This document shows positions 11,770 through 53,670 of a stretch of 64,000 nt of DNA, one piece after another. The position numbers and the translations under genes are program-made. Position 1 is the stretch's first letter. Each line of letters starts with the position of its first letter. A model generated the notes under the pieces. It searched no databases. It worked only from the letters and a program-made list of their open reading frames with translations, and was not told where the DNA came from. The DNA lies in assembly GCA_951406725.2 (NCBI GenBank), contig OX597817.1:1612001-1676000 (forward strand), in the 5' to 3' direction. This DNA is from Octopus vulgaris (lineage: Eukaryota).

Positions 11770-12313
11770 TACTTATTAATAAGGGTTCAGCAAAGATTTT
11801 CTTTACCACATACCGAAGTTTAGAAACTTAGGAATCTAAGCGAACCTCATTCATATTTTGAATTCGGCGGTACTAACACTGAATATGATCCGCCTGATAC
11901 CGTTCGGTGGAGAGATATATTCAATTATTCCAGTACCCTCGAATTATTGAGGAATGCCATGCTGATGAGGAAAATGGTTGGTAAAGTATAATTCTATATT
12001 CTTTATGCCAATCTAATTCCGAAACGCGGACCAGATATTGATTGATTTTCGTTACTTCTTCCTCTCTGTCTGTGTGAATTATCTTCAAGTATTTTGGTTT
12101 CTCTAGGAGTCCCTTTCTAAAGTAGAAGAAATAGCTAAGATTTTTTGGCTGCTATTTCTAAACTTCGGTATGTGGTAAAACAAATCTTTGCTGAACCCTT
12201 ATTAATAAGTATTACTTAAGTTTACCGCGAAATGGTCCTTTTTTCATATTGAATTCTACTTGGTGAAATTATTGAATACTTCTTAATTAATTAATTTTAC
12301 CCTTTGTTATTAT
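11770..12313 (+). mobile_element. (TA)n-embedded non-autonomous PLE/retrozyme-like element with inverted 5' segment
   Basis: 11770-11826 is an inverted copy of 12155-12211; homologous to 27070-27600 in the opposite orientation; (TA)n on both sides. Confidence 0.75.
11962..12035 (+). ncRNA. Degenerate type-I hammerhead ribozyme motif with long stem II
   Basis: CTGATGA-GGAA..TTGG.TAAAG..CTTTA..CCAA..TTCC-GAAAC-GCG; cleavage triplet and stem I have decayed. Confidence 0.6.
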
Positions 12314-13859
12314 TATATATATATGTATATATATATATGTATATATATATATATATATATATATATATATATATATATATATATATATATATATATATAT
12401 ATATATATATATATATGCATATATATATATGTCCTGCATATATCTATCTGTCTATCTAGCTAGCTATCTGTCTGTCTGTCTGTCTATATATCTATCTATC
12501 TATCTATTTATCTATCTATTTGTCTATCTGTATATCTATCTATCTATCTATCTATCTATCTATCTATTCTAGAAAAAGCACTACATTTGAAAAGAAAATT
12601 ATTTTGCGCGTGCAAAAGGATTCTTACAGACTTCAATCTGTGCATATTCATAGACAAAAATATTTAATTCATCAATCTTATTAGTACCGCAAAATAGTAT
12701 TTTAACCATTTATAACGCAATTAATAAATAATTAATTTTCGTACTTAACATAAATTTATGTCTCCTCTATAGGCAGACCTTTAAAACTAGGAAATGAAAA
12801 GTGACTGAACAAAATTCCCTAACAACGTCTTGGCTGGTCCGTGGCTATAGTAGAAGGCACCTGCCCAAGGTGCTAAATAGTAGAACTGAACTCGAAACCA
12901 CGACCACGCCTACGCCATATTTGTACGTAAACTTGTGTACATATACATGAATTTATGTATGTAAATCTCTCTCTCTCTCTCTCTCTATATATATATATAT
13001 ATATATACACACACACATTTACCGACATATACATACACACTTAAACACAAGCACTCACACACACACAAAGCATTCTGTGCATTGCATATATATTATAGAA
13101 CGTATTTTCAATATACTCGTAAACATAAGGCGGTGCCCCAGCATGGCCACAGTCTAATGACCGAAACAAGTAAAAGATAAGCGATAAAAGCAAACGAAAA
13201 CTACGCGCACAAAGTTTACAGAACTGTGCAATGAAAATGTTCTTATATATATATATATATATATATATATATATATATATATATGTATATATATATATAT
13301 ATATATATATATATATATATACACATGTGTACACGTATCCGTATATGCATATGTGGATAACAAACGCACGCATATACATGCATGTATAATCACAATTAAA
13401 TGCGTAGAATTACACGTGCACACATATTCTGTGCATGTTTCATCATATAAAGTCACACACACACACACACACGTACGTACAAGCTGACATATACAAAACT
13501 CGTTATTGAATTCTACATGTAGTCAGTTTTGAAATAAACAATAGTTAACGACTCCTCATAGTATGTCAATCACTTAGTCTAAGAGATACATAGCTATTTT
13601 GATGAATTACATTATACTTAAAACTTATCTGTATCGACACACAAATGCTGTCATCGACGTTGTAAGACAGTCTCGAATTTAATAGTAGATCCAGCCATAA
13701 AAGGCAACTGTTGTGATGAAACGAGCTATTTTGGACACCATGAACGTTTAAAATGAGTGAAGATAGTGTGATGCCATGCAGAGAAATTCCACATATTTTG
13801 TTCTCTTCCTCATTCCCAGACTAAAAGATAGAAACTAAATTGAGTTTGGGCTTCCTGTC

Positions 13860-15065
13860 GCATACCCAGAACTATGTAGTGTGCAAATATAGCCCTGACG
13901 TCAACTGCAAAACCAGAAATATAGTTTACCGAATAAACTGCATGGATGCTGATTGAAAAAACCGGAAGACTGCATACAGAGGTGAAACAGCGAGAAGTTT
14001 GGCCGAACGCATAAATGGACATTGGAGGGAGTACAGGGATCAAAGACAATCCTCGATAGTCTACCAGCATGCCAAAGAACAGCATGGTGGTGTGCTGAAC
14101 CGGATTAGCATAGAAATCCTGTCTAGACACACGGATGACACATCGCTACGACAGATACGAGAGTCAGTCTTCATAAACGAAACACGACCGGTTTTGAATA
14201 GTAAATACTCTCAATAAGCAAGGCCTTACAAAGACCCATGAATACACATACACATATACACATACACGCACACACACAAGCGGGACATAAACACACACAC
14301 ACACGCACATACACATGCAAAGACAAACAAGGACACAGTCATGCCTTCACGCCCACATGGACACACACACGGGAAACATACATACAGAAGTACACACGTA
14401 CACACAAATACACAGGAACTCACACACATACGAACGCACTCACATGCACACGAGCACACACATACATACATACATACACGAATACACGCGTATGCATACG
14501 CATGCTCGTACTCACGCACTGATAGATATCAATTTATTCAACATTTATCAAACAAAGAAGACAGTTTAACTGTCTTTCAGAGAAACACCAATGAACGTCT
14601 GCGTTTGCGAAGAGAACAAAGAGAAAACGAAAACCGCCATCTTATGCCTATGAAAAATGACACAAGTCAGTAATTAAAAAACACACACAACATAAGGATG
14701 CACACACTTTCTTATGAACAGGCAGACACACTGACATATTCACATACTCATCTCGGACAGATCTCGGAAAAATCCCAACGCTGGAAAATATGTTTAAAGA
14801 AATGGAGGTAGAGAGACGTATCACCGAAGAGATTGCAACAATGCGATGAAATAATTATTTGACGAAACAATAAAAAAAAAAATAATAATTGAAATGATAA
14901 TACGAACAATACTGAATATTTGAACTATTGATTAACTGTTTGAACCAAGTGTTTAATATATGAGTTATAACAATAAATGACTGAACCAGTGCGTGTGTTT
15001 ATTATTACCGGTATAATGCCCTTCCCAATGTTCAATGGTATTTCTTTCAACACATGAATTCATAT
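13860..15065 (+). mobile_element. Penelope-like element 3' remnant (GIY-YIG endonuclease plus 3' region)
   Basis: Frameshifted VCKYSPDVNCKTRNIVYRINC..YRGETARSLAERINGHWREY..YQHAKEQH..LRQIRESVFINETRPVLNSK (13875-14217); ends near (TA)n. Confidence 0.8.
14817..14865 (+). ncRNA. Degenerate hammerhead motif in PLE 3' region
   Basis: tca-CCGAAGA-G-ATTGCA acaa TGCGAT-GAAA-TAATTATT-tgacg; palindromic AAATAATTATTT as stem III; core carries substitutions. Confidence 0.5.
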
Positions 15066-51699: not shown

Positions 51700-52530
51700 T
51701 TTTATATAATCAGGTTAATTTCTATTAATGTGCTTAATATATCGAGTAAGTAATTAGTTATAGCGATGTAAAGTATCTAAGCTTCGATTAAGTATAACGT
51801 AGAATTCTTATCTATAATTTTTATTCTTTTAATTATCCACCCAGAGCATCAAGAATTGTTTATGTTATTAATTGAAGTAATTTTACCATTATTGTATAAT
51901 AATCTTATAAACGGGTATGATGTAAAAATAAAGGGGTATTTAATTATCTCATCCGTTATTTTTATTCTTTAGTTATTTAGCGTAGTCATCAATAACTGTA
52001 TATACTATTATGAATTATGATAAGTTTTCTATTATCATATAATAAGGTTAATTCCTATATAAGAGTTTATCACTATGAATAAATAGATATTTGGTTGTCT
52101 TTTCTGTAATTTTTATTTTTTAACTACCTAGTGAGATCCTCAATAGTTGCATATATTGTCGAATATAATAATACTTCAGTTATTATAAAATAAAGTTAAT
52201 TCTTATAGAAGGGCTTATCATAGTAAATAAATAAACAGGTGATTAATTATTGCGACGTAACGTATATGTTTCTATTAAGCATTACATACAATTATTATCT
52301 GTAGTTTTTATTCTTTAGTTATCTATTAAGCATAACGTAGAATTCTTGTCTGAGGTTTTTGTTCTTTAGATATTCAATGACGTCATCAATTTTAGTAGAT
52401 AACGATACTCGTTTTCTCCGTTAGATTTTTTATAGAAGATTTCAAATTATCAAAAAATATGGAACTAGTATGGTATTTTTAGATTTTATTTTTATACACT
52501 AAATTAGTTATTCAATGACGTCGCTCTTGG
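51700..52530. repeat. Degenerate AT-rich tandem repeat
   Basis: Recurring t.tctgtaatttttattcttta.ttat..catcaata and aggttaatt.ctat blocks about every 150-190 bp. Confidence 0.55.
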
Positions 52531-53529
52531 TTTGGCATTTCTTTCTGTTAGGTTTTGCTAAATTTTTTCAGATGTTCTGTTAGAATTTCGCCAATTTGGA
52601 TTACCTTGATAATATTGTGTTAACAAATTTTCGTACATATTAATTTTAATAATATGTATATATATATATATATATATATATATATATATATATATATATA
52701 TATACATATATATATATATATATGTGTGTGTGTGTGAGTGTGTGTGCGTGTATGTGTGCATGTTGTATGTGTGTGTGTATGAATATATATATATATGTAT
52801 GTATGTATATGTTAACGTAATTGAAACAAGTTTTGGATTTGATTTTTAAGGTATGATCTAAAATAAAGACATGGTTTTCTTCGTACGTATTTTTGATTGT
52901 TGTTAATTCTCCAAATTCCTTAAAATTATGCATAAGGATTGTTGGATTTACCTGAATTACGCCAGGATTTACCTAGGATTTGTATTCTACAGACATTTAC
53001 TGGAATCTGATTGTTGGAAATTTAAACTTATTCCTTTATACTGAGTGCTGACTTGATATCTGTCAGGAATTTTTAGTTCCATTTTTCTTATATATATATA
53101 CACACATACATATATATGTATGCATACACACACGCATGATAGATTTACATACATCAGTTTTCTTGACTTACTAAATCGCCATCTCCCGCCAAAAATATTA
53201 AATGAAATTATAAAAGAGAAAAGAAAAAAGAAAGAAAACGTTAGACAGAGGTAGGGATTGAAATATCCCGGATTCTACTGTAGCCGATAATTGCAAAGAG
53301 AAAGTATTTTCCACAGGAACACACTAATGACCAGTTACACCAAAAATCTTTCTTTGATATTTTCCGAACTTGCTTTTTGGACTCTTCTAAACAGATCCGT
53401 TTCGATTCGAATATCTTAGTTCAAATTCTGATACATATGTTTGAATGATGTGAGTATCTTGCTTGAACAAAGTACACTTCACTCGAGAAGGATACTGACA
53501 CTAATCTAGACTCCTTTTGTAGCCTTTGA

Positions 53530-53670
53530 AAGTTCTTTCAGAGCACTGGTGAATATCTTAAGAGCGCACCAATGCTGGGTCTTCTTATGTCCAAACATTA
53601 TGAGTTTGGACATAAGAGGGCCCAGTATTGGTGTGCTCTTAAGATATTCACCAGTGCTCTGAAAGAACTT
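53530..53670. repeat. 141-bp fold-back hairpin abutting (TA)n
   Basis: 67-bp arms, loop attatga; 4 mismatches, all G-T on the plus strand. Confidence 0.9.

Follow-up and report, generated by a model that had tools for sequence, protein, structure and literature searches.

What are the non-coding islands that lie in and beside the (TA)n microsatellites of a 64,000-nt stretch of the Octopus vulgaris genome? This stretch, the window of our analysis, spans positions 1,612,001 to 1,676,000 of contig OX597817.1 in assembly GCA_951406725.2 (C4:1612001-1676000 in our numbering; the genome comprises 2.8 Gb in 227 contigs). An earlier note, made from the sequence letters, described twelve such islands as a guild of non-autonomous ribozyme retroelements that carry type-I hammerhead ribozymes (HHRs) and use the reverse transcriptase (RT) and endonuclease (EN) of Penelope-like elements (PLEs) to insert into TA repeats. 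All twelve islands adjoin (TA)n at the positions given there, and the connection to PLEs, the type-I HHRs with palindromic stem III and the targeting of (TA)n are borne out. The elements are real and abundant. Most are PLE ends of the ordinary sort and a minority are true retrozyme-type units; neither kind is new, and no new class of element is involved. We consider it highly probable that seven of the islands are truncated or inverted PLE 3' ends set in (TA)n, and that two are head-to-tail HHR units lacking an open reading frame (ORF), likely copied and inserted by the RT and GIY-YIG nuclease of such an element.

Hammerhead motifs are enriched in the window

Simple repeats are the dominant content of the window. 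Using a type-I HHR descriptor, with 40 dinucleotide shuffles in which microsatellites were held in place as control, we identified six intact motifs (23740, minus strand; 23781, plus; 24842, minus; 27394, minus; 34451, minus; 44786, plus) compared with 0.2 ± 0.4 (maximum 1) in the shuffles. A seventh motif at 38916 on the minus strand possesses a stem I of 3 bp. Fifteen arbitrarily placed 40-kb blocks (600 kb) contain 15 motifs versus 1, 1, 0, 2 and 1 in five shuffles. The density in the window (six in 64 kb) is consequently about four times that of the arbitrary blocks, which extrapolate roughly to 65,000 intact motifs genome-wide with family G, described below, left out. Many of these may carry 'unclassified' repeat labels. 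An Rfam scan of the window has no HHR family among the matches listed (best 150 of 409), which represent microsatellite-driven miRNA and snoRNA noise, and in a repeat search over the whole window the signal is swamped by microsatellites. The loci examined hold 267 HHR motifs in 104 signature groups, including redundant loci and some chance matches. Many additional HHR families are found in random blocks (L191-L250) and other loci, with differing stems and even differing palindromes in stem III.

The claim that most islands carry a type-I HHR is correct in that the motifs are real, and too broad in that the canonical core and stems are intact in only five of the twelve: 23645 (both arms), 27070, 34319, 38767 (minus arm) and 44714. 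Three islands are broken copies of families with intact HHRs, with the cleavage site deleted in 11770, G8A in one arm and a deletion in the other in 39199, and CU changed to UC in the core of 49465. Two possess family-wide or variant cores, namely 39900 (U3-A8, almost no stem I) and 33450 (U at position 6). The island at 33623 contains no HHR; that of its family sits just upstream of the truncation point. The last island, 53530 (53531..53669, unstranded), is a fold-back without an HHR. It is single-copy with no relative found in a genome search, and we rejected it as a family member.

Seven islands lead into PLE coding sequence in their other copies

Because other copies run upstream into GIY-YIG or RT frames, the islands at 23645, 33450, 34319, 39199, 39900, 44714 and 49465 are, as judged from sequence, 5'-truncated or inverted 3' ends of PLEs. 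This is the outcome that the earlier note had itself named as telling against its reading, and its general label, appropriate for the families of 27070 and 11770, is wrong for these seven. In families B, D, G and J the islands are joined in other copies to upstream PLE coding sequence via untranslated regions (UTRs) of 0.8-1.4 kb, and in family F less directly.

Family D accounts for three islands, located at 34320..34526 (minus, about 205 nt, HHR at 34451), 44712..44918 (plus, HHR at 44786) and 49460..49668 (plus, HHR core broken). A family D search pattern extended by 18 nt in the 5' direction has 527 matches, and 24 of 28 such aligned copies extend by more than 55 nt. RT or GIY-YIG is reached through a CA-rich UTR of about 1.3 kb in four of six extended loci, while extension of the other two (L284 and L285) reached no ORF. 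A 205-nt family D monomer with a fixed 5' end and no parent was rejected on the basis of this extended-pattern search.

The family B island (23646..23941, plus) is a PLE 3' end with an inverted 5' copy, its arms lying at 23646-23756 (minus) and 23758-23941 (plus) with HHRs at 23740 (minus) and 23781 (plus). Loci in which it connects to a GIY-YIG C-terminus number 1 of 30 in one set and 2 of 15 in another. Family G (33450..33610, minus), a PLE 3' end with an HHR-like core, is joined to PLE coding sequence in one of three extended loci and in one random block; no ORF was reached on extension of L297 and L299. Family F (39199..39700, plus) represents a PLE 3' end with an inverted copy. Its copies have at least 800 nt of non-coding upstream sequence in common, and PLE frame pieces, joined directly or as an inverted arm, are present in 3 of 30 loci. 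Other PLE frames near family F loci were rejected as partners, as they lie downstream, on the opposite strand or past a TA tract. The parents of families B and F carry a C-terminus of a different type.

Two families, A and J, include autonomous elements. The window remnant at 24672..26355 (minus) is a 5'-truncated copy of family A that retains the thumb, a CX4CX2C motif and GIY-YIG (25498-26355), a 3' UTR and an HHR with a U3-A8 core at 24842. It is 95-96% identical to the family, which has many open frames of 753 amino acids with RT, CX4CX2C and GIY-YIG in one frame. RVT_1 is matched above cut-off (E 3e-7) and GIY-YIG below Pfam's cut-off (E 0.0016), and the Atlas clusters nearest to the PLE frames carry HTH_animal and GIY-YIG. 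Family A copies possess inverted 5' arms and two 3' ends approximately 42 nt apart. The family J island lies at 39899..40294 on the minus strand and has a U3-A8 core at 39998-39992 with a very weak stem I. It matches a young full-length family at 99% identity, and copies of the island are 97-100% alike. A GIY-YIG frame is located at most 1.5 kb upstream in 5 of 20 family J loci, and extension of four loci yielded two elements with pseudo-long terminal repeats (pLTRs) in the arrangement pLTR-ORF-pLTR (L423, L424) and a 781-amino-acid frame. The CX4CX2C motif between RT and EN is present in A, J and the parents of D and G. A CX2-5CxxC motif defines the Neptune and Nematis clades (Craig et al., 2021; PMC8557442), and by this motif families A and J are EN-containing (EN+) PLEs of putative Neptune/Nematis type.

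Family J (L423-L426) keeps the U3-A8 core with almost no stem I, and TGACGTC motifs occur in direct repeats inside its 3' UTR. In another phase, the start of the family J RT frame is overlapped by a frame of more than 330 codons that lies upstream.

Families C and E consist of non-autonomous head-to-tail units

The islands at 27070 and 11770 belong to families C and E, whose units of 566 and 573 nt are 63% alike over the whole unit. They are ORF-less, with longest stop-free frames of 69 and 45 codons, have a GC content of 34-35%, and the window's C unit folds with a z-score of -4.5. The C insertion (27070..27859, minus, HHR at 27394 with a predicted GUU site) is composed of a full unit with deletions (27070-27600, 531 nt), an upstream partial unit in head-to-tail orientation (27601-27804) and a short inverted arm (27797-27859). 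The E insertion (11769..12310, plus) consists of a short inverted arm (11769-11826) and unit positions 88-573, its HHR core being located at 11962-11968 (plus). A second copy of the C insertion's 5' fragment at 28093..28238 (minus) represents a local duplication. Between 27744 and 28420 about 300 nt and a long TA tract occur twice in succession, either as a local duplication or as an assembly artefact.

In all 12 C copies that reach the unit start, the window copy included, and in 10 of 14 such E copies, the sequence before it is the 3' end of the unit itself. A module common to both families has 2,237 exact matches in the genome, many of them 563-571 nt apart or inverted. Among 30 module-selected rows, eight distinct places are direct repeats at 563-571 nt and many have inverted arms; no co-oriented PLE frame lies directly upstream in these 30 loci. 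Full units, each ORF-less and with one type-I HHR, are found in tandem (L427, L428). The copies are dispersed over many contigs, carry inverted arms and possess two fixed ends approximately 90-100 nt apart. By this organization C and E are probably non-autonomous PLE derivatives, that is, candidate non-LTR retrozymes. PLE frames beside C and E loci were rejected as partners, being downstream, on the opposite strand or past a TA tract; in all 15 co-oriented C/E-PLE pairings among 72 loci with PLE C-termini a TA tract lies in between.

The C and E hammerheads differ in 8 of 13 stem pairs by changes on both sides, which are compensatory, and the core is better kept than its flanks (0.990 versus 0.953 and 0.979 versus 0.911). 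Cleavage is predicted 285-288 nt away from the genomic 3' end. With one HHR in the window's C copy and a broken one in its E copy, neither is 'active' under the two-HHR rule of a recent preprint (bioRxiv 10.64898/2026.07.22.740005). No RNA record is listed for 27070-27860; the runs compared were four contig sets, three of them RNA only by presumption, without read starts or ends, and we use this result neither for nor against expression.

About 10 kb past the window end, on the minus strand (L429, G000:C4:1684500-1687500), an ORF-less 535-nt unit is repeated more than three times at 97-98% identity. Each unit carries a canonical GUC HHR and the array ends in a 63-nt TA tract. By its layout it is a textbook, if predicted, non-LTR retrozyme of another family, which is unrelated to C and E.

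Element termini fit priming within existing TA tracts

Of the 15 HHRs in the arbitrary blocks, 10 are followed by (TA)5 at a distance of at most 350 nt, compared with 20% of random positions. Eight of nine families tested possess two or three fixed 3' ends passing into (TA)n, and D has one. Alignment ends, internal breaks included, run into TA in 74 of 118 cases for C, 38 of 73 for E, 16 of 20 for J, 31 of 35 for A, 61 of 77 for B, 57 of 82 for F, 21 of 34 for H, 13 of 24 for I and 52 of 76 for D. Thirteen termini with known continuation carry 1-7 alternating A/T bases (mean 3.4 versus 1.8 expected, p ~0.0006). In young family J copies (TA)n is found on the 5' side too in 9 of 13 resolved cases, a further 7 of the 20 copies not being resolvable. 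These termini and the 5' (TA)n of family J fit a model in which a tract already present is nicked and priming takes place at sites inside the RNA.

In the mechanism we propose, the GIY-YIG nuclease would nick a (TA)n tract. The element RNA would hold, at a fixed internal position, 1-7 alternating A/T bases with which the nicked end would pair; reverse transcription would begin there, and two such sites would give rise to the 'tail'. Early termination could then yield short monomers, a second priming on the other strand the inverted arm, and read-through across a unit junction partial dimers and trimers. For C and E the data do not distinguish between two possible templates, a circular RNA joined at the HHR site and a tandem transcript that stays uncleaved. 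HHR cleavage is predicted, probably as a dimer via palindromic stem III.

Tentatively, we would go a step further: C and E may be RNA circles closed at the hammerhead and rolling-circle copied by a Neptune-type PLE protein from two internal sites paired to nicked (TA)n, and family G may be a natural A6U hammerhead that still cleaves or whose fold is kept non-catalytically. We regard this fuller version as possible rather than probable. If true, the inverted arms and tails of C and E would prove directly, from the genome, that PLE enzymes mobilize animal retrozymes.

The three architectures distinguished in the earlier note (fixed-end monomer, head-to-tail partial dimer and fold-back) are present; they do not amount to a new system, as they and the (TA)n bias are already published PLE features. 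Partial tandems including the dimer form, the inverted 5' copy or fold-back, the tail and the (TA)n bias were described by Craig et al. (2021; PMC8557442), RT initiation at two internal sites by Frangieh et al. (2024; PMC11167929), and both the single and opposite-strand PLE HHRs and the U3-A8 core by Cervera and de la Pena (2014; PMC4209133).

Weighing the evidence and alternative explanations

Several observations count against the origin and mechanism outlined above. The sharp 5' end of family D (18 of 26 unselected copies within -11..+4) is not accounted for by random truncation, and the family D tree is poorly resolved, with 3 of 63 branches starred. The link of family F to PLEs is based on rearranged junctions only. 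Families H and I have not been traced to a parent: H (33623..34226, plus; arms 33623-33817, minus, and 33847-34226, plus; truncated downstream of the family HHR) has no ORF and no head-to-tail junction in 20 loci, with about 600 nt of UTR-like non-coding sequence common upstream, and I (38617..39082, minus; main arm 38930-38617 with the HHR at 38916, inverted arm 38920-39082 with a broken core) has neither in 18 loci, with about 400 nt of such sequence. No autonomous PLE with the C/E 3' module was found among the 72 loci with PLE C-termini, which cover less than 0.1% of the genome. The rows used for C/E covariation were pre-selected by the descriptor and most double changes follow the single split between C and E. 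The 5' ends of C and E copies do not accumulate where cleavage is predicted, and the genomic sequence thus preserves no sign of it. In D and I the core is not better kept than the flanks (0.929 versus 0.936 and 0.935 versus 0.943), and the junctions of the 13 termini were placed by eye. From the literature, HHR cleavage is reported as dispensable for an anole PLE in vitro, whose start site is non-homologous to the target (PMC11167929), and eight of nine Xenopus retrozyme dimers failed to cleave (bioRxiv 10.64898/2026.07.22.740005).

Some of these points favor the view that the HHR-like motifs are relics, either a fold bound by the PLE protein or merely inherited, with no cleavage in the life cycle. 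HHR mutants failed to block insertion of the anole element in vitro (PMC11167929), and young family J has almost no stem I. Family G has reached at least 16,336 copies with U at core position 6 (16,336 exact matches versus 181 with A, the most exact matches among the motifs counted), where a change lowers activity, as reported for A6C, a natural low-activity variant (PMC3088659). Position 7 of family G takes all four bases and the remaining core is conserved, and family G thereby departs from the canonical invariant A at position 6. Our literature search, in which the one paper listed concerns the twister ribozyme, found no description of an A6U hammerhead core, which is possibly covered by Lunse et al. 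(2017) on PLE HHR variants or by supplements. The family bears on whether PLE hammerheads need to cleave at all. Across unrelated families, however, the catalytic residues, the NUH triplet and the C3-G8 or U3-A8 pairing are kept while the stems and position 7 vary. Monomer folds of the six window HHRs (z -1.9 to +1.1) are uninformative for weak dimer-type motifs. We judge relic status unlikely; it would concern only the ribozyme step and be compatible with PLE-driven copying and insertion of the islands.

Very improbable, in contrast, is that all islands are independently amplifying non-autonomous retrozymes or, in a weaker form, that the 205-nt D monomer is a SINE-like solo pLTR (SINE, short interspersed nuclear element) with its own start site, re-copied in trans. 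In favor of this, the sharp 5' end of D adjoins a small GGTCA/TGACC hairpin and a TCATTC hexamer, which we take to be initiator-like, only 1 of 26 unselected copies, itself 63% diverged, reaches beyond -20, and D has 2,870 exact intact-HHR matches compared with the 527 of the extended 5' pattern. However, families B, D, G, J and F have other copies that lead into PLE coding sequence, the island at 39900 is nearly identical to a full-length young PLE, and the short D copies do not group together as a clade. They are interspersed with long copies in the weakly resolved D tree, with 20 label changes versus 21.3 in shuffles (166 of 500 as low), and the fixed-end monomer of the earlier note shows no separate short-copy lineage. 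Either hairpin stalling or run-off at a transcript 5' end would explain the hot spot.

Also very improbable is that C and E are not independent. They would then be either the 3' ends of an autonomous PLE outside the sample or tandem duplications that arose locally and spread as DNA, in the manner of a minisatellite. In favor of this, the junction pattern (26 nt) of the subfamily present in the window has only 21 exact matches, most C and E copies are shorter than one unit and the sample read covers about 2 Mb of 2.8 Gb. Against it, copies that reach the unit start run on into the end of the unit itself (12 of 12 in C, 10 of 14 in E), the copies are spread over many contigs, with inverted arms and a pair of fixed ends, and no co-oriented PLE frame lies directly upstream in the 30 module-selected loci.

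Other features of the window

Three PLE remnants were said to carry GIY-YIG and the same HHR type. Three ORF remnants are indeed present (13777-14199, plus; approximately 20517-21099; 25498-26355, minus), with GIY-YIG in two of them and an intact HHR behind one (24842). The old remnant at 13777..15095 (plus) comprises a decayed GIY-YIG C-terminus from 13777 to about 14200 and a CA-rich 3' region ending in (TA)n, without an intact HHR. Decayed RT and linker pieces at 20517..21099 lie on both strands, and neither GIY-YIG nor an HHR was found in them.

At 33450-34526 and 38617-40294, as well as at L094, L078, L356 and L414, families are nested in each other's TA tracts and form multi-element clusters. 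Two loci 376 kb apart (L430 and L431; C1:8414323 and C1:8790079) are 99.8% identical over 1.3 kb, representing a recent segmental duplication or an uncollapsed haplotype. A 241-codon frame at 46354-47079 (minus) has no Pfam match and presumably represents the C-terminal end of an RT protein of a long interspersed nuclear element. Very common short repeats, many ending in TA, are located at 26890-27040, 28410-28640 and other positions; to us they have a tRNA-derived SINE-like look. An AT-rich island (23-25% GC) with a 51-nt repeat lies between TA tracts at 51430-52650 and matches none of the families used.

Comparison with known systems

Penelope-like families have been annotated in Octopus vulgaris in a paper whose main text contains no mention of ribozyme, hammerhead or retrozyme (PMC13282606), and a giant squid paper gives 235 hammerheads (among PMC6962438, PMC12602865 and PMC6765202). 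Our search for octopus or cephalopod Penelope and hammerhead, whose scope excluded most subscription papers and Repbase/Dfam, found no description of these elements. The movement of animal retrozymes has so far been inferred mainly from co-occurrence and pLTR similarity, and the preprint on metazoan retrozymes states that evidence on their life cycle is limited (bioRxiv 10.64898/2026.07.22.740005). In the octopus genome, ORF-less HHR units with PLE insertion marks sit alongside young intact PLE frames (A and J). With the (TA)n target defined and the start sites mapped, trans-mobilization thereby becomes testable in vitro.

Plant LTR retrozymes carry a type-III HHR in their LTRs, a primer-binding site, a polypurine tract and a 4-bp target-site duplication. 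The octopus HHRs are type I and differ on this point, the other three features not having been searched for. Non-autonomous Chlamys elements such as MRC1 are likewise PLE derivatives with pLTRs and head-to-tail copies but, as described in PMC8557442, have no canonical HHRs, are directed to (CA)n or (C)n and share the 3' end of their partner. Poseidon of Anolis (PAc) has two internal RT start sites near the pLTR-ORF junction that define the tail, a layout also found in family J, and AT-rich targets. Its start sites are reported as non-homologous to the target, whereas octopus termini carry 1-7 nt of alternating A/T (PMC11167929).

EN+ PLEs of the Neptune and Nematis clades (PMC8557442, PMC4209133) resemble the octopus PLEs in the RT with C-terminal GIY-YIG, the CX2-5CxxC linker and the pLTR-ORF-pLTR layout, in heavy 5' truncation, inverted 5' copy, tail and (TA)n bias, and in minimal type-I HHRs with palindromic stem III, an extra base before stem II and the U3-A8 variant, present mostly as singles or opposite-strand pairs. 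The octopus elements differ in tails of 40-185 nt instead of 30-40 nt, stem II inserts of 50-97 nt in several HHRs and the U at position 6 in family G. Metazoan non-LTR retrozymes (Cervera and de la Pena, 2020; PMC7229834; Li, Clavereau and Pollet, bioRxiv 10.64898/2026.07.22.740005) are similarly ORF-less tandem units with one type-I HHR each, a GC content below 45%, strong self-pairing and co-occurrence with PLEs. Octopus units of 535-573 nt are larger than the 170-400 nt of the former report and within the 51-972 nt of the latter. In contrast to those retrozymes, the octopus units are for the most part partial dimers scattered through the genome, carrying inverted arms of PLE type and, within (TA)n, two fixed ends.

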